36,030 nt of DNA from the NCBI GenBank assembly GCA_964348745.1, contig CAYGDT010000003.1, positions 1-36,030 of the forward strand, written 5' to 3'. Under the pieces are notes generated by a model that saw only the letters and a list, made by a program, of their open reading frames with translations, was not told where the DNA came from and did no database searches. Of this stretch, positions 9,736-36,030 are shown in pieces. The DNA is from an uncultured Candidatus Peribacteria bacterium. GTDB lineage: Bacteria; Patescibacteriota; Gracilibacteria; Peribacterales; Peribacteraceae. Numbering within the stretch: position 1 is the first letter of the stretch; every line of letters begins with the position of its first letter. A program made the translations under genes and the position numbers.

Positions 9736-11511
9736 CTATTTGACGGTAACGGATTTTGCAAGATTCCTCGGCATATCAGGGTCCTTACCTCTCTTGACCG
9801 CGAGGAAATACGCCAGCACCTGAATGGGGATGATATTCACGATTGCCTGCGCAGCGCCCGCATCGGGTACTTTGATCCACGTATCGAATGCGTCGTTGTT
9901 TTTCGGTGCTATACCAATTGTATGTGCGCCGCGCGCTTTCAGTTCGATCGTGTTATTGATCAGGTCGCGTGTTACTTCGTCGTTGCCGGCAAGTGCGATG
10001 CAGGGTGTCCCCTCCTCTATCATAGCAATCGGACCATGTTTCAACTCGGAGCCTGCAAATCCTTCGGCGTGGATGTACGACACTTCTTGGATCTTGATCG
10101 CGCTCTCGAGCGCCATGGGGTAGTTCCAGCTTTTTCCGATAATAAAAAGGTCGGTGGAATCCTGCAGTTCCTCGGCGACTTCTTCAAGGAATTCCACGTA
10201 CCGCGGGTTTAACATGTCGTTGATCATGGAGGTCGTCTCCATAAGAAGCAGTTTTCCTTCGTGGAGTTTATTTGCCATGGCGTATGCGACAAGTAGCAGC
10301 ACGGCCATTTGTCCCGTGAGCGCCTTCGTGGATGCAACCGCACGTTCGGGGCCTGCATTAATAAGGAGCGTGTAGTCCGCCTCTCGGTCGATGGTGGAAC
10401 CTTCCGCATTGACGATGGCGAGGACTTTCGCCCCTTTGCTCTTGGCAACCTTCATCGCTTCGAGAACGTCTGCGGTCTCGCCGCTTTGAGATACGACGAT
10501 CAGCAGGCTTTCGGGTTTCAGGAAATGGTGGTGGACTTTAAATTCGCCTGCTGAGGTTACGTTGACGTGGTGTCCGGAAACAACCGAGAAGAAGTATTCA
10601 GCAGCCATGCAGGCTTTGTGTGCTGTGCCACACCCGACGAGGTATGTTCCTCTGGCATTTTTAATTGCTTCGGCAACGGTAAGAATCTGCTTCTCATCTT
10701 GGTTCACCGCGCGGGCGATGCTCTCTTTTTGCTCCATAATTTCCTTGAGCATGTAGTGTGCAAACTCTCCTTTCTGCGCTTCTTCTACCGACCACGTTAT
10801 TTCGATCTCGCGCTTCGGGCGCTCCTGTCCGGTCTTCAAATCGGTAAAGAGCACCGAATGACCGTCGGTGACGACCATTTCTCCGTCATCGAGATATTGC
10901 ACTATTTTGGTATGTTCCATGAACGCAGGAATGTCGGATGCAATGAAATATCCATCGTCTTTGGAAACGCCAACGATCAATGGAGATCCTGTGCGCGTGG
11001 CGACCAACACATTACTTTCCAAGTGGAACGCGAGGATGCCGTACCGACCGGTGAACTTGGCACATGCGTTGCGGACTGCCGAAGCGAAATCGTCGGTCAG
11101 TCGCATCTCTTCCTCGATCATGTGCGGGATCACTTCGGTGTCGGTTTCACTTAAAAACGTGTGCCCTCTCTTTATGAGATCGGTGCGCAGCTCGTGATAA
11201 TTTTCGATAATGCCATTATGGACAACGGCGATCGTTCCATCACAGTTCACGTGCGGATGCGCGTTTTGGGGTGTCACGCCTCCGTGCGTTGCCCAGCGCG
11301 TATGTGCAATCGCCAGTCCGCATTCCTCATGGAACCTCTTTTCGTCTACCGTGCTGATTTTGCCAACATCCTTCTCAACCAAAATAGATGAGCCGATCTT
11401 TCGGGCAACCCCCCAAGAATCATATCCGCGGTATTCCAAATTTTTCAGTCCCCGAACAACGAGCTGACCCGCGTCGCTTCTGGAGCCGACGTATCCAAAT
11501 ATTCCACACAT
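9736..11511 (-). CDS. glmS: glutamine--fructose-6-phosphate aminotransferase
   Basis: N-terminal MCGIFGY (Cys nucleophile), two SIS domains, C-terminal NLAKSVTVK, 591 aa. Confidence 0.97.
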   Translation of the reverse strand: MCGIFGYVGSRSDAGQLVVRGLKNLEYRGYDSWGVARKIGSSILVEKDVGKISTVDEKRFHEECGLAIAHTRWATHGGVTPQNAHPHVNCDGTIAVVHNGIIENYHELRTDLIKRGHTFLSETDTEVIPHMIEEEMRLTDDFASAVRNACAKFTGRYGILAFHLESNVLVATRTGSPLIVGVSKDDGYFIASDIPAFMEHTKIVQYLDDGEMVVTDGHSVLFTDLKTGQERPKREIEITWSVEEAQKGEFAHYMLKEIMEQKESIARAVNQDEKQILTVAEAIKNARGTYLVGCGTAHKACMAAEYFFSVVSGHHVNVTSAGEFKVHHHFLKPESLLIVVSQSGETADVLEAMKVAKSKGAKVLAIVNAEGSTIDREADYTLLINAGPERAVASTKALTGQMAVLLLVAYAMANKLHEGKLLLMETTSMINDMLNPRYVEFLEEVAEELQDSTDLFIIGKSWNYPMALESAIKIQEVSYIHAEGFAGSELKHGPIAMIEEGTPCIALAGNDEVTRDLINNTIELKARGAHTIGIAPKNNDAFDTWIKVPDAGAAQAIVNIIPIQVLAYFLAVKRGKDPDMPRNLAKSVTVK

Positions 11512-12454: not shown

Positions 12455-13552
12455 ATGCCTGATTCCGCTACCGCCACCGCTCAAAAATCTTCCGGTTCAC
12501 AGATCCATCTCGATCTGCAGCAGCTGCTCGACAGCCTCTTTATGGTTCTGACGGACAAGGAGTCTATGGTTATCCAAAAACGCTTCGCATTGAAGGGAGA
12601 ACAAAAGCAGACTCTTGAAATGATTGGTAAACATTTTAATGTTACTCGCGAGCGCATTCGGCAGATCGAGAGCATTGCACTTTCGAAACTCAAGCGCACA
12701 GTGCGCACCACACGTCTCGACGAGGTCAATGCGTTGGCGAAAGATATCCTACGACTTCATGGTGGTGTGTTGCGTGAGGACGGGCTCGTATCCGATTGCC
12801 TACGGCATATTGCAGGTGCCAGCGAGATAGACGGAGCGGTTTTGCGGCTGAGTTTCTCTATTGATTCTGACATGGTTGCAGGCAACCGTGCCCAAACATT
12901 CATTCCTTTCTGGAGGATCGAGAGTCTTGCACTTGATGATATTTCAACCATTGTGAACAATATTGTTAAAATCTTAAAGAAGAGAAAGAACTGTATGCAA
13001 TCGGATGAAATCGTTTCGGCTATTCAGGCATTGAATCTCTTTGACGGTAGAGTTCCCAGCAAGGAACTTATTTCAAGTTGTCTGGAGATCGATGAGCGTC
13101 TTCGCCATATTTCCGAAGGGTGGGGGCTAACCGAGTGGCGTTTTGTCCGTCCGAGAAGCATTCGTGACAAGGTGGAAATCATTCTCCGCAAAACCGGCGA
13201 GCCACTCCACTTTATGGACATCGCCAACCGCATAAAAGCTGCACAATTTGATCACAAGAACGTAACGGTTCAAGCAGTGCATAACGAACTCATCCGTTAT
13301 CCGCAGTTCGTATTGGTAGGAAGAGGACTGTATGCGCTTAAGGAGTGGGGCTACGAGCCCGGTACGGTTGCGGACGTCATCGAAAAGATTCTGATTGAAA
13401 AGGGACCCTTGAGTAAAAAAGAAATCATCATCGAAGTTGCCAAGCAGCGTACAGTGAAGGTTGGCACAATTAGTTTGAATCTTCAAAAGATGCCGTACTT
13501 TAAGCGTGTTGGACGAGCAGTGTATGCTTTTGACTCGGAAGCGAAGAAGTAA
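12455..13552 (+). CDS. sigma-70 region 4 domain protein fused to two HARE-HTH-like modules (no region 2)
   Basis: ESMVIQKRFALKGEQKQTLEMIGKHFNVTRERIRQIESIALSKLKR is a clear sigma-70 region 4 HTH. The C-terminal half has two HARE-HTH-like units (FMDIANRIKAA...VHNELIRYPQFVLVGRGLYALKEW and KKEIIIEVAKQ...LQKMPYFKRVGRAVYAF). No -10-recognition region 2 motif is visible. Confidence 0.8.
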   Translation: MPDSATATAQKSSGSQIHLDLQQLLDSLFMVLTDKESMVIQKRFALKGEQKQTLEMIGKHFNVTRERIRQIESIALSKLKRTVRTTRLDEVNALAKDILRLHGGVLREDGLVSDCLRHIAGASEIDGAVLRLSFSIDSDMVAGNRAQTFIPFWRIESLALDDISTIVNNIVKILKKRKNCMQSDEIVSAIQALNLFDGRVPSKELISSCLEIDERLRHISEGWGLTEWRFVRPRSIRDKVEIILRKTGEPLHFMDIANRIKAAQFDHKNVTVQAVHNELIRYPQFVLVGRGLYALKEWGYEPGTVADVIEKILIEKGPLSKKEIIIEVAKQRTVKVGTISLNLQKMPYFKRVGRAVYAFDSEAKK

Positions 13553-15206: not shown

Positions 15207-15211
15207 GGTTG

Positions 15212-15232
15212 AGTTCTTAGTTCTTAGTTCCT
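15212..15232 (+). repeat. 3 x 7-nt tandem repeat AGTTCYT
   Basis: AGTTCTT AGTTCTT AGTTCCT, starting 6 nt after the TAG stop at 15204-15206. Confidence 0.8.
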
Positions 15233-15320
15233 AGTGGTGATGATTCGATGCATTTTTTATATATATTTATCATTTGCAACCAAAGGTGTACGTCGTGCAA
15301 TACTATCTGCTTGCATTGTA

Positions 15321-15338
15321 GGTGTACAGGTGTACACT
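15321..15338. promoter_or_regulatory. palindromic operator-like site A (GGTGT-N8-ACACT) overlapping a candidate promoter
   Basis: GGTGTacaggtgtACACT contains the 8-bp perfect palindrome GTGTACAC. It overlaps the spacer and -10 of TTGCAT (15311-15316), N16, TACACT (15333-15338). An extra GGTGTAC half-site lies at 15285-15291. Confidence 0.45.
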
Positions 15339-15484
15339 CACATCCGCCATCAGCCTTCGCTCCTCGATCTTTCTTGCTTTCCTATTACTTGTAGCTCTCT
15401 GTGCTTCACGTCAGAAGCTACGGCCGACAGGTCAGCCTTCGCTCTTTGTTATTGTTTATTCACTGCACTACTACGATTCATTTT

Positions 15485-15526
15485 CAATTCTCAATTCTCC
15501 ATTCTCCATTCTCCATTCGCCATTCT
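15485..15526 (+). repeat. 6 x 7-nt pyrimidine-rich tandem repeat CMATTCT
   Basis: CAATTCT CAATTCT CCATTCT CCATTCT CCATTCG CCATTCT, ending 3 nt before the ATG at 15530. Confidence 0.9.
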
Positions 15527-15529
15527 CTT

Positions 15530-15772
15530 ATGCATTCTCTACCTCCAACGCCGGCCCGTGTATTTTCTCGCTCCGTTGTTATCGATTGCAGCAGGAATGC
15601 ACTGCAGAAACGCTTCGATCCCCGCTCGCTCCTGCAGTGGGTCCAAAGCTTTCCCTCTCGCGACGATGTCCATGTCTACCTTGGCAATGTCGCATTCAAC
15701 GGACAACGCGGCCTCATGCGTCAGCTACAGGCTATGGGATGCACGGTTACGTGCAGGCAGTACCAAAGCTAA
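15530..15772 (+). CDS. candidate small protein (80 aa) of unknown function
   Basis: The ATG follows a heptamer array in the same way as recA, mraY and gap. Product: MHSLPPTPARVFSRSVVIDCSRNALQKRFDPRSLLQWVQSFPSRDDVHVYLGNVAFNGQRGLMRQLQAMGCTVTCRQYQS. The C-terminal 60 aa look like a normal globular sequence and faintly resemble the first half of NYN/LabA-type domains (weak, unverified). The gene is not certain, because all three plus frames are open here. Confidence 0.3.
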   Translation: MHSLPPTPARVFSRSVVIDCSRNALQKRFDPRSLLQWVQSFPSRDDVHVYLGNVAFNGQRGLMRQLQAMGCTVTCRQYQS

Positions 15773-15783
15773 ACTTCCATAAT

Positions 15784-16800
15784 TTATTCAGACTCAGCAG
15801 TCAGCTGTTCTGTAAAAAACGCTACCGTTTTTTCCATGAAGTCGTTCCATTGCGAGACAAATTCATGCTTTTCTCCATCGTAGACTACAAATGTGGAGTC
15901 CTTCAGCTCTTCTTGTAGCGCAGTACCTAGTTCTATCGACCAGTCCAGCGGTACATCGGTGTCTTCGCTTCCGTGAAAGATTAACACAGGATCATCGATC
16001 GTTCGTAGATGCGTGAGCGCGGAAATGGCATTCCATGGTTCGGTGTTTTCTTCTTTTTCACCCCAGACTGCAATGGTCTTGTCGCCTTCCGGCCTTTCAC
16101 GGCGCCAGCGATTGAAGTTTTTGTATGCATCACCGGATACGGGCGCGTAGAGAACCGCAGCATCGATCATTTCAGGATGCGCGGTGAGTATATTTAGCGT
16201 GACTCCCCCACCGAGTGAGTGCCCGAGCATGCCAACGTGCTTTGTGTTGATGGCACTTATTTCACTCAGATCGGATTCACGAATTGCATTGATAGCATTG
16301 ATGCTATCCATTGCATATTCCAGTCCTGCATCGTAGATCTCACGGGTATCAGGGCTATCGTCTGAAAGCCCATGTCCGCGGTAGTCGGTATGCAGTACGG
16401 CAAATCCGTGCCGAGCGAGGTAGTCTTGTTCACGCTTCAACCCTCTACCAACGGTGTAAACCTTGGGGTCGATATAGCCGTGGTTCAGTATAATCAAAGG
16501 AAACGGTCCAGTGCCGCGTGGGACATTGAGTATTCCGCTGATACGCAGTCCATTACTTAAATACTCGATCCGGTACCGTGTGTAGCTCTCTGTACGTGCT
16601 AGTTGTTCCAATAACTTCAACCCCGCTCCTACCAGTTTCATCTTTGCAAAGTGATCAAGTGTAAGTGATGCAGGGACTTGTTCTATGGAATCGAAAGCTT
16701 CGATGATAGATGATGCATTGCTCGAAGTCCCCTCTCCACTATGAGAATCCTGCACTGGGGCGCAGGCTGTGAGGAGTATCAGTAATACAATGCGCTTCAT
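15784..16800 (-). CDS. lipoprotein alpha/beta-hydrolase (S9 / dienelactone-hydrolase-like serine hydrolase)
   Basis: Lipobox signal MKRIVLLILLTAC, nucleophile elbow GHSLGG, and a late His (GEKHEF). 338 aa. Confidence 0.85.
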   Translation of the reverse strand: MKRIVLLILLTACAPVQDSHSGEGTSSNASSIIEAFDSIEQVPASLTLDHFAKMKLVGAGLKLLEQLARTESYTRYRIEYLSNGLRISGILNVPRGTGPFPLIILNHGYIDPKVYTVGRGLKREQDYLARHGFAVLHTDYRGHGLSDDSPDTREIYDAGLEYAMDSINAINAIRESDLSEISAINTKHVGMLGHSLGGGVTLNILTAHPEMIDAAVLYAPVSGDAYKNFNRWRRERPEGDKTIAVWGEKEENTEPWNAISALTHLRTIDDPVLIFHGSEDTDVPLDWSIELGTALQEELKDSTFVVYDGEKHEFVSQWNDFMEKTVAFFTEQLTAESE

Positions 16801-16882
16801 GAAGCCATGATATCACACCGAATATGTGTCGCATTTCACAAAGAATTTACTCGATTCCGTATTCTAGTCTGTACATTGAAAG

Positions 16883-16900
16883 GGTGTACAATATTACACC
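16883..16900. promoter_or_regulatory. palindromic operator-like site B (GGTGT-N8-ACACC)
   Basis: GGTGTacaatattACACC has perfect 5-bp arms and an A/T-rich 8-nt spacer. It overlaps the -35 zone of a leftward promoter whose -10 is TAGAAT (complement of 16861-16866), upstream of the hydrolase gene. Confidence 0.5.
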
Positions 16901-16964
16901 ATAATAAATGTGTACGAACGTAAAGTCCATCTACTTGCCCATCTCAGAAGATACACATATCGTA

Positions 16965-16982
16965 GGTGTACGTATAGACACC
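16965..16982. promoter_or_regulatory. palindromic operator-like site C (GGTGT-N8-ACACC) at the predicted recA transcription start
   Basis: GGTGTacgtatagACACC. It lies immediately downstream of TTGCCC (16935-16940), N17, TATCGT (16958-16963), so it covers the predicted +1. Confidence 0.5.
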
Positions 16983-17052: not shown

Positions 17053-17087
17053 CCATCTTCTATCTTCAATTTTCCATTATCCCTTTT
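17053..17087 (+). repeat. degenerate 5 x 7-nt pyrimidine-rich array in the recA leader
   Basis: CCATCTT CTATCTT CAATTTT CCATTAT CCCTTTT, followed by tcccactatcatc and the ATG at 17101. Confidence 0.7.
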
Positions 17088-17100
17088 TCCCACTATCATC

Positions 17101-18186
17101 ATGTCAAAGACTGCTACTCCTGTAAAACCTATGACCGATCAGAAAACTTCCGCGAAGAAAGACGACATAAAGCAAGTAAAGGATGATGCCATTGCTGCGG
17201 CACTTGCACAAATTGAAAAGCAGTACGGCGTTGGTGCCATCATGAAGATGGACGAGCACGCCGGCAGGCACATTCCTCGTTTCCCTTCAGGTTCCCTATC
17301 ACTCGATATCGCTCTTGGCGGTGGAATTCCGCATGGACGCATTATTGAAATCTACGGACCGGAGAGTTCGGGAAAAACAACTCTCAGTCTCCATGCAATT
17401 GCCGAAGTGCAACGCAAGGGCGGCAGAGCGGCCTTTATAGACGCTGAGCACGCACTTGATGTTCAGTACGCAAAGAAGATCGGCGTAAACATTGACCAAT
17501 TACTCGTATCTCAGCCGGATTCCGGCGAACAGGCACTCGAGATTTGCGAGACGCTCGTGCGCTCCGGTGCAGTCGATATCGTTGTCATTGACTCCGTTGC
17601 AGCGCTCACACCGCAGTCCGAAATCGACGGTGCCATGGGAGATGCACAAATGGGGACGCAGGCGCGTCTCATGAGTCAGGCGCTCCGGAAACTAACGGCC
17701 ATCGTCAATAAGACGCAGTGCAGCATCATTTTCATCAACCAAATTCGTATGAAGATTGGCGTGATGTTCGGCAACCCTGAAACGACTGCAGGCGGTCAGG
17801 CGCTTAAGTTCTACGCATCACTTCGATTGGATGTTCGCAGGATCGACAAAATCCTGGAGAAAATCCCCGGAACCGACGGAAAAGCAGCCGAACAGGAAAT
17901 TGTCGGAAACCGCACGCGTGTGAAAGTGGTGAAAAACAAGGTCGCGCCTCCATTTCGACAGGCAGAGTTCGATATCCTCTATGCACAGGGAATTTCCAAA
18001 GAGGGGGACATCCTCGATCTTGGCGTAAAGTACGGCGTCGTCGAAAAGAGCGGTGCATACTTTCGAGTCGGCGAGGAGACGATCGGGCAGGGTAAAGAAC
18101 AGGCGCGCATGTATCTCAAAGATAACCCAAAACTCACAGATCGCTTGGAGAAGGAAATTCGTAAACTTGCCGAAGTTGCCATCTAA
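17101..18186 (+). CDS. recA: recombinase RecA
   Basis: Walker [11 protein letters not shown]1/L2 region ([30 protein letters not shown]), 361 aa. The track TTG start at 17029 would translate the heptamer array ([14 protein letters not shown]), so I prefer the ATG at 17101. Confidence 0.97.
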
Positions 18187-18188
18187 CT

Positions 18189-18698
18189 ATGGAAGAACTC
18201 TACTCCGACAAACTCTGGAAAGTGGTGCGGGAATCCGCACCGCTTCCGGATGGAGGAGAAAAACAAATCACGCGACTGTATAGACCGGATGGAGTGCATA
18301 TTATTGCATTGACAGAAAATGGAAAAATCCTGCTTCTGAAAGAATTTCGGCCGTTTTACGGGACGTACATTTACATGCTCCCAAGCGGGAGAGTTGATAA
18401 AGAGAATGACCACCGCGAGGGGGCTCAACGGGAACTGCGAGAAGAAACCGGGTTTCGTGCAGAAAAGTTGGAGCACTTTTGCAGCGCACGCCAGTCGGAA
18501 TCGATGGAGTTTGAAAACCACGTCTACGTAGCTTCTGGACTTGTTAATGATCCGCTGCCGCAGGACGAAGATGAACGGATAGAAGTCATGGAATGTTCTC
18601 TGGTTGATACGATACTACTTGTTCATGGCAGCGCAAAGGTACATTTGCCCAGTGCGTACGCATTGCTGCGATATGCGTTTGAAAGGCCTAGGATTTAG
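18189..18698 (+). CDS. Nudix hydrolase (ADP-ribose pyrophosphatase-like)
   Basis: Nudix box GRVDKENDHREGAQRELREETGF. It starts 2 nt after the recA stop, so it is probably co-transcribed. Confidence 0.85.
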   Translation: MEELYSDKLWKVVRESAPLPDGGEKQITRLYRPDGVHIIALTENGKILLLKEFRPFYGTYIYMLPSGRVDKENDHREGAQRELREETGFRAEKLEHFCSARQSESMEFENHVYVASGLVNDPLPQDEDERIEVMECSLVDTILLVHGSAKVHLPSAYALLRYAFERPRI

Positions 18699-21870: not shown

Positions 21871-21985
21871 CGGAAAATGATAGAGGATAAAGGATAGTGG
21901 ATAATAATTGAGTGATTTCATTTTATTACCCTTTATCCACTCTCCACTCTCCGTTATCCTTTACACACTCTCCGTTATCCTACTG
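21865..21985. repeat. purine-rich heptamer array followed by a complementary pyrimidine-rich heptamer array (long imperfect inverted repeat)
   Basis: Left arm, 21865-21920: GGATAAC GGAAAAT GATAGAG GATAAAG GATAGTG GATAATA ATTGAGT GATTTCA. Right arm, 21930-21985: CCTTTAT CCACTCT CCACTCT CCGTTAT CCTTTAC ACACTCT CCGTTAT CCTACTG. GGATAGTGGATAA (21893-21905) pairs with TTATCCACTCTCC (21933-21945) with 1 mismatch. GGATAACGGA (21865-21874) is perfectly complementary to TCCGTTATCC at both 21950-21959 and 21971-21980. Confidence 0.85.
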
Positions 21986-21987
21986 CT

Positions 21988-35969: not shown

Positions 35970-36030
35970 TGGTGGGCGCCGGGGGATTCGAACCCTCGAC
36001 CCTCTCGGTGTAAACGAGATGCTCTAACCA
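35970..36030 (-). tRNA. tRNA-Val (anticodon UAC), 5' end cut by the window edge, CCA encoded
   Basis: The reverse complement reads TGGTTAGAGC A TCTCG TTTACAC CGAGA GGGTC GAGGG TTCGAAT CCCCC GGCGCCC A CCA. This gives an anticodon loop with TAC, a canonical T-loop (one A-C mismatch in the T stem), a 7-nt 3' acceptor strand, discriminator A and CCA. Confidence 0.85.

Follow-up and report, generated by a model that had tools for sequence, protein, structure and literature searches.

Conserved palindromic sites at the recA promoter of Peregrinibacteria as candidate operators of an SOS-type repressor

The CPR bacteria (Patescibacteria) are uncultured and carry very few regulators, and to our knowledge almost nothing is known about how their genes are controlled. 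The stretch of DNA analysed here (the window, 36,030 nt of an uncultured Candidatus Peribacteria bacterium) contains recA, preceded by two copies of the palindrome GGTGT-N8-ACACC. The locus thus raises the question whether these palindromes are operators, which genes they would control and what kind of regulator would bind them. The analysis yields a precisely defined and phylogenetically supported candidate operator and a promoter model (TTGnnn-N17-TAnnGT, without a Shine-Dalgarno sequence) for one CPR class, together with a putative core regulon of two genes (recA and a small gene that had not been annotated before).

The palindromes and the parts of the recA control region

Both palindromes were recovered as exact matches at the positions given in the original prediction (Table 1). 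The full motif GGTGT-N8-ACACC occurs twice in the 36-kb window, where 0.01 matches are expected, and none of 100 shuffled sequences reached two. The shorter core GTGT-N8-ACAC was found four times (0.39 expected) and not three times and exclusively between genes, as had been claimed: two matches are the recA sites, one (15322-15337) lies in the promoter of the small gene and one (10618-10633) lies within the coding sequence of glmS and is probably a chance match. The heptamer GGTGTAC is present in nine copies (1.55 expected), five of which fall in two short control regions, 15285-15335 and 16883-16971. The symmetric 5+8+5 form originally proposed describes both sites of the window exactly, but the unit that is conserved across relatives is asymmetric, GGTG(T/C)AC-N5-(t)ACACC, with seven conserved bases in the left arm and five to six in the right arm. 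It forms a pseudo-palindrome of 18 bp in which the centres of the half-sites are separated by 11 bp, in line with the dyad of 14-20 bp and the half-sites on the same face of the helix that characterise LexA operators.

The predicted recA promoter, TTGCCC-N17-TATCGT, scores under the threshold of a generic promoter scan, but its TTG and TA..GT are invariant over eight lineages. Three extra half-sites had been pointed out, of which only TGTGTACG (16909-16916) is conserved in relatives, as part of an element at about -60, whereas TGTACA (16870-16875) and TACAC (16952-16956) are not. The centre of the distal operator lies about 79 bp upstream of the predicted transcription start. No tRNA or Rfam family overlaps the recA control region. 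The nudix gene is probably co-transcribed with recA, because the gap between the two is 2 nt. Control of a recA-nudix unit as such holds for part of the lineages only: the two genes are adjacent in the window, L088 and L093, and a nudix gene is found downstream of recA in L098 and L099, but it is absent in most other relatives.

Table 1. Features of the recA control region and of the neighbouring genes in the window
Feature	Sequence	Position	Strand	Remarks
-60 element of small gene	AAAGGTGTAC	15282..15291	+	GGTGTAC half-site starts 26 bp upstream of -35 TTGCAT (15311-15316)
Small-gene operator	GGTGTACAGGTGTACACT	15321..15338	.	PWM score 22 bits; overlaps -10 hexamer TACACT (15333-15338)
Small gene		15530..15772	+	previously unannotated; 80-aa basic protein, pI 10.3; 15 homologues, 63-79% identity
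S9/alpha-beta hydrolase gene		15784..16800	-	Pfam Peptidase_S9/DLH; lineage-specific cargo between small gene and recA
Distal operator of recA	GGTGTACAATATTACACC	16883..16900	.	exact match; shared by 14 of 15 lineages, with a spacing of 80-83 bp to the proximal operator in 13
Auxiliary element at about -60	AAATGTGTACGAACGTAAAGT	16906..16926	+	one GTGTAC half-site, starting 26 bp upstream of the -35 hexamer
Predicted recA promoter	TTGCCC-N17-TATCGT	16935..16963	+	TTG and TA..GT invariant in alignment A4 (8 lineages)
Proximal (primary) operator of recA	GGTGTACGTATAGACACC	16965..16982	.	exact match; equivalent site in each of the 15 related lineages, even L098 and L011, the most distant; no arm covariation
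recA		17101..18186	+	Pfam RecA, E 7e-130
NUDIX hydrolase gene (NudE-like)		18189..18698	+	Pfam NUDIX; best NCBIfam match NudE, under curated cutoff

Several motifs and processes with some likeness to these sites were considered and rejected. Avoidance of GTAC through restriction-modification was ruled out, since GTAC occurs 149 times against 145 expected, and likenesses to dif/Xer, the NrdR box, CRP and CIRCE sites were ruled out by orientation, copy number or sequence. Another perfect palindrome, GGTGCGGGAATCCGCACC at 18224-18241 (7-4-7), shares the GGTG...CACC ends and lies 35 nt into the nudix coding sequence. This palindrome has no conserved counterpart in the nudix genes of L088 and L093 and is therefore probably due to chance.

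Some general features of the window were noted as well. Most start codons are not preceded by a Shine-Dalgarno sequence (e.g. 17060-17100, 15488-15529 and 21948-21987). Many genes are preceded by C/T-rich leaders, such as ttctccattctcc or tcctcccctattatcATG, which have the same sense as the anti-Shine-Dalgarno sequence and are not complementary to it. Relatives show this pattern as well. At the end of the window (35973-36030, minus strand) there is a partial tRNA (Rfam, 35.6 bits), which was not called by ARAGORN as the tRNA is incomplete.

Conservation and specificity of the sites

The nearest relatives of the window's RecA are found in MAGs named Candidatus Peregrinibacteria or Peribacteraceae. 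We compared the recA regions of 14 other distinct lineages (L001/L085, L002, L081-L084, L088, L093 and L096-L101), whose RecA proteins are 72-87% identical to that of the window. Thirteen of these 14 have the same two sites at a spacing of 80-83 bp, and the remaining one, L098, has the proximal site only. The columns without variation in an alignment of eight lineages (A4) correspond to two copies of GGTG.AC...ACACC, to the TTG of the -35 hexamer and to the TA..GT of the -10 hexamer; the upstream flank could not be aligned and the length of the leader varies. The promoter consensus just before the proximal site is TTGnnn-N17-TAnnGT, and as the proximal site always starts 0-1 nt past the -10 hexamer it covers the predicted transcription start. 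In a more distant member of the Peribacteria, L011 (RecA 64% identical), GGTGAGTGCGCACTCACC exactly fills the spacer of TTGACG-N17-TATCAT; its variant form, GGTGA...TCACC, is also that of the proximal site of L097. The distal site is retained whatever gene stands upstream of recA.

All 19 loci of the Peregrinibacteria lineage have the relaxed pattern GGTG-N10-CACC in the 330 bp before recA, and none of about 77 recA loci from other bacteria has it there, with about 0.5 matches expected overall. The recA upstream regions of Saccharibacteria contain neither GAAC-N4-GTTC nor CTGT-N8-ACAG nor GTGT-N8-ACAC. The local gene order is strongly conserved in the relatives (S20, RuvX, a protein with sigma region 4 and HARE-HTH, a hypothetical protein, recA, dnaB, mraY, gap and fbp). 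The footprinting of recA upstream DNA that had been suggested as a check thus turned out in favour of the sites: at least 14 other lineages keep their sequence, their number, their spacing and their placement relative to the promoter, but not the surroundings. This conservation suggests that a sequence-specific, probably dimeric regulator uses the recA sites as operators, as had been proposed.

A position weight matrix (PWM) was built from 14 site sequences and used with a cut-off of 15 bits. In 15 loci (262 kb) 37 sites scored at or above the cut-off, all of them at the promoter of recA or of the small gene, against 0.35 expected from shuffled sequences; the 262 kb are essentially one syntenic region, in which recA is the only classical repair gene examined. 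In the seven loci that had not contributed to the matrix (L093 and L096-L101, 146 kb) there are 13 such sites, again all at most 220 bp upstream of recA or before the small gene. No conserved site was found at any other gene in the 20-36 kb neighbourhoods of recA, and the 8.7 kb past the right end of the window contain no motif site. In L096, the closest relative, a weaker site of 12.7 bits, GGTGTAATACTCCACACC (11029-11046), was found at the stop codon of recA, upstream of dnaB; it was not seen at this position in the other loci. The motif is ready for scanning complete Peregrinibacteria genomes for the full regulon.

Palindromes at such a position could also act as nucleic-acid structures, for instance as a leader hairpin or attenuator, as a terminator, or as recombination sites behind a variable slot in the gene order. 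The proximal site was indeed flagged as a weak terminator-like hairpin. Pairing of the arms was therefore counted in 14 proximal sites (alignment A5). Arm pair 5/14 is paired in seven sites, compensated in one (the symmetric double change of L097, which would suit a structure) and unpaired in six; of the other four arm pairs three are invariant and one (1/18) is unpaired in a single sequence. Seven single-sided changes that break a pair thus stand against one that is compensated, and the arms are conserved by sequence and not by pairing. Covariation of the arms amounted to 0.022, compared with 0.010 in shuffled alignments, and was equalled by 196 of 500 shuffles. Since changes in the arms do not co-vary, the data argue for a protein-binding site and not for a hairpin. 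In addition, the distal site lies upstream of the promoter, neither site is followed by a T run, and there is no Rfam match. For recombination sites it could be said that the genes in the slot vary between lineages, but these genes do not have flanking repeats, and the sites follow the promoters and not the borders of the slot, which in L083 is empty. We consider a role as nucleic-acid structure highly improbable. The sites are real, conserved and, in the DNA examined, specific to two promoters, and they do not form an RNA structure. Judged from sequence comparison, they very probably constitute the operator set of a regulator.

The small gene upstream of recA and the variable slot

The second promoter with a conserved site belongs to the small gene, which sits in a 570-bp gap (15207 to 15783). 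Homologues differ 381, 183 and 1178 times at the first, second and third codon positions, respectively, and synonymous codon differences number 915 and non-synonymous ones 399, which indicates a coding sequence under selection. The protein has the signature VVIDWS...LLxWVQSFPSRDDVHxYLGN...LMRQLQAMGCTVTCRQY, and a profile search retrieved 90 clusters of similarly small proteins at E<=0.001, but neither Pfam nor NCBIfam yielded a match. The AlphaFold2 model (pLDDT 64.5) has an alpha/beta fold without a significant match in the PDB (best Foldseek E-value 0.17), and one remote member of the family showed a sub-threshold match to NYN (E 0.055). The gene was found upstream of recA in nine lineages, and it was not found within the reachable 9-21 kb in L002 and L097-L101.

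The promoter of the small gene reads TTGCAT-N16-TACACT, and its operator, which can also be read as an exact GTAC-N4-GTAC, spans the spacer and the -10 hexamer. Save for one A/G difference this operator is identical in nine other distinct lineages, always before the same gene. The -60 element of the small gene is kept as rAArGTGTACG at the same distance in L001, L081-L084, L086, L088, L092, L093 and L096. Its counterpart at recA is kept as AAGGTGTACGTCYGACAAGT in L001, L081-L085 and L088, as AAAGTGTACGAACGTAAAGT in L093 and as AAAGTGTACGACCGTAAAGT in L096, and is not present in the recA regions of L002 and L097-L101, so that it appears specific to a sub-clade. Among the lineages of the sub-clade with the small gene, the half-site element of either promoter begins at a distance of exactly 26 bp from the -35 hexamer, on its upstream side.

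At about 185 nt, the small gene has a longer leader in the window (15345-15529) than in relatives, where the length is 40-100 nt. Within the window's leader there are a direct repeat, TCAGCCTTCGCTC (15350 and 15432), and about five copies of the 7-nt tandem repeat CCATTCT (15488-15525); a portion of this leader, CCATCAG...GGCCGACAGGTCAGCC, is found again in L082 and L088. Ahead of the small-gene promoter, another short tandem repeat, GTTCTTA/GTTCCTA (15207-15240), follows directly on the stop codon of a DUF4215 gene.

Between the small gene and recA there is a slot (15773-16882 in the window) that has a different gene content in almost every lineage, with DUF559 nearby. It holds the S9 hydrolase gene in the window, an S41 peptidase gene in L088 (its ATG overlaps the distal site), PALP plus a methyltransferase in L093, a PIN protein in L081, a Cys-rich ORF in L001, a hydrolase and two more genes in L096 (the latter separating the hydrolase from recA) and nothing in L083. 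No repeats were seen flanking these cargo genes. As the distal site remains unchanged next to such different cargo, it belongs to recA and not to the divergent hydrolase gene, which it had been supposed to control. The leftward promoter that had been proposed for the hydrolase, TGTACA-N18-TAGAAT, was indeed found by the promoter scan with nine of 12 matches, but promoter-like matches in this region are not enriched over shuffled sequences (5 vs 3.5). This weak match overlaps the distal site in the window, so that incidental co-repression of the hydrolase gene may occur, although without a conserved function. On the comparison of lineages, the hydrolase is not a conserved part of the system.

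Candidate regulators and likeness to known systems

The sites are reasonably likely to be operators of an SOS-type (damage-response) repressor of Peregrinibacteria, for which LexA is the most likely candidate. Several resemblances make LexA plausible: recA is a target, the proximal site overlaps its core promoter, the core of the motif resembles the cyanobacterial type, and a lexA gene, next to valS, is listed for a complete genome of the class, that of Candidatus Peribacter riflensis (202 aa, K01356, E 5.9e-55; PMC4736985 supplement). The overlap is with the predicted promoter, the proximal site beginning 1 nt past the -10 hexamer in the window and the site of L011 lying in the spacer, in line with LexA operators. 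Besides lexA only a few regulators are listed for P. riflensis (hrcA, nrdR, dksA and a trpR-like gene), and recA is preceded by the same genes (rpoD-like, hypothetical, recA; PMC4736985 supplement). The DNA studied here contains no lexA or other regulator gene, either in the window, in the 8.7 kb past its right end or in the approximately 260 kb of related loci. A phmmer search of the ORFs of the window and nine related loci with LexA of E. coli and B. subtilis (approximate queries) gave no match, and Pfam searches on about 50 ORFs of the window and related loci gave neither an S24 peptidase nor a candidate repressor.

The original prediction had compared the sites with the SOS box of E. coli, CTGT-N8-ACAG. 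Both share the 16-bp span, TGTA...TACA, an A/T-rich centre and the position at the recA promoter, but the defining outer C/G is G/C here in all 14 sites of the PWM and in all 14 proximal sites of alignment A5, and position 6 is C instead of T. More than one SOS box per promoter is also found in E. coli (lexA and recN), but the two full sites here are 81 bp apart and not adjacent. The LexA box of cyanobacteria, RGTACNNNDGTWCB or AGTACWNWTGTACT (with CGTACGTCTGTACT as an example of a recA box; PMC3091678), is closer. It has the same dyad axis, the same 4-N4-4 core, an identical left GTAC and the same location upstream of recA; it is likewise a pseudo-palindrome with the better half on the left (PMC3091678), and the operator of the small gene has the exact GTAC-N4-GTAC. 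Unlike in cyanobacteria, where the flanks are A...T, the flanks GGT...ACC are invariant here, and the right half is mostly nTAC and not GTAC or GTTC. The cyanobacterial and Gram-positive class also covers the CGAAC-N4-GTTCG box of Gram-positive bacteria. When the 14 proximal sites were compared with G(T/A)AC-N4-GT(A/T)C, the AC of the left half was found in all 14, G12 in four and T13 in nine. If LexA does bind, the sites would add a further motif to its unusually variable series, in between the cyanobacterial GTAC and the gammaproteobacterial TGT types. The operator would be a new sequence variant of a known switch, and the family of the small protein is a new component. This conserved and unannotated protein is a candidate for a new SOS function.

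It had also been said that no published SOS-box description was known for CPR-like lineages. The SOS network of Patescibacteria has, however, been studied (Sanchez-Osuna, Barbe, Erill 2017, Environ Microbiol 19:3465, PMID 28618189), according to PMC8565304 and PMC7739468, in which that work is cited. Its subject, the motif and regulon of LexA in CPR bacteria, is the one addressed here, and so is the superphylum. PMC7739468, a later paper from the same laboratory, cites it among the cases in which LexA evolved a direct-repeat motif, and judging from this citation the published Patescibacteria motif may differ from the palindrome described here. Non-canonical LexA proteins of Bacteroidetes (CTAA-N5-TTAG, GGA-N5-TCC) likewise have a palindrome over the core promoter of recA and a small, lineage-specific regulon (PMC8565304). 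The repressors have been identified in Bacteroidetes, as in the DdrO-PprI system of Deinococcus, while here there is a candidate only, and the motif sequences of both systems are unrelated to the one found here. In Deinococcus, too, a palindromic operator (RDRM) lies over the recA core promoter and the regulon is small and lineage-specific.

These examples bear on the possibility that a repressor other than LexA binds the sites, such as an XRE-family protein with a metalloprotease (as in DdrO/PprI), a lineage-specific HTH protein or the 80-aa protein itself. LexA could not be tied to the motif in the DNA that was reached, the visible regulon is tiny (recA and one lineage-restricted small gene), and in Bacteroidetes control of the SOS response has been taken over by non-canonical repressors (PMC8565304). 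The 80-aa protein is basic, always has the operator in front of its gene and adjoins recA in nine lineages. However, L002 and L097-L101 keep the recA operators with no small gene nearby (9-21 kb), which means that the protein is not obligatorily linked to the operators, and its predicted structure is an alpha/beta mini-domain without HTH and with weak similarity to NYN. More generally, the geometry of the sites matches that of known LexA boxes, and lexA does exist in the class Peribacteria. We regard a non-LexA repressor as a possible but less likely reading. Its most specific form, a damage or stress regulon restricted to Peregrinibacteria, with a non-LexA regulator and recA and the 80-aa family as its sole conserved targets, seems rather unlikely; if true, the 80-aa family could be a RecA-associated factor or a regulator, and the circuit would be SOS-like but built from CPR-specific parts.

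Alternatively, the sites could bind an activator or a dual regulator (e.g. of competence or stress) that switches recA on. The fixed location of the -60 element, 26 bp upstream of the -35 hexamer at both promoters, is typical of class I activators, and the distal site keeps a constant distance to the promoter. However, half of the lineages lack the -60 element, and the best-conserved site, which is the only one that L098 and L011 retain, lies over the -10 hexamer, the transcription start or the spacer. This overlap with the promoter core is incompatible with simple activation, and activation therefore appears improbable. Repression of recA and of the small gene would be the most likely mode.

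Under control by a LexA-like repressor, which we favour, a dimer would recognise GGTG(T/C)AC-N5-(t)ACACC, i.e. a GTAC-N4-nTAC core extended by GGT and ACC. Bound to the proximal operator, over the predicted transcription start, it would block RNA polymerase, while the distal operator at its fixed distance of 80-83 bp and, in the sub-clade, the -60 half-site would probably contribute cooperativity. Repression by the same protein would extend to the neighbouring small gene, through the operator that overlaps its -10 hexamer. Upon DNA damage the repressor would be inactivated, in the case of LexA by self-cleavage stimulated by RecA bound to single-stranded DNA, and its loss would induce the small gene and recA, in some lineages along with nudix. 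Which protein binds, that it represses and does not activate, and that DNA damage is the signal are inferences in this scheme, and the transcription starts are predicted ones.

The protein encoded two genes upstream of recA was considered as the regulator and rejected: it is always syntenic, but its gene has no site of its own and nothing ties it to the motif. It is encoded at 12455-13552 (plus strand), in every relative examined likewise two genes upstream of recA. The protein, of 365 aa, combines an RpoD-type sigma region 4 (residues 17-90) with a HARE-HTH domain like that of the delta subunit of RNA polymerase (238-298), and its counterpart in P. riflensis is annotated as rpoD (PMC4736985 supplement).
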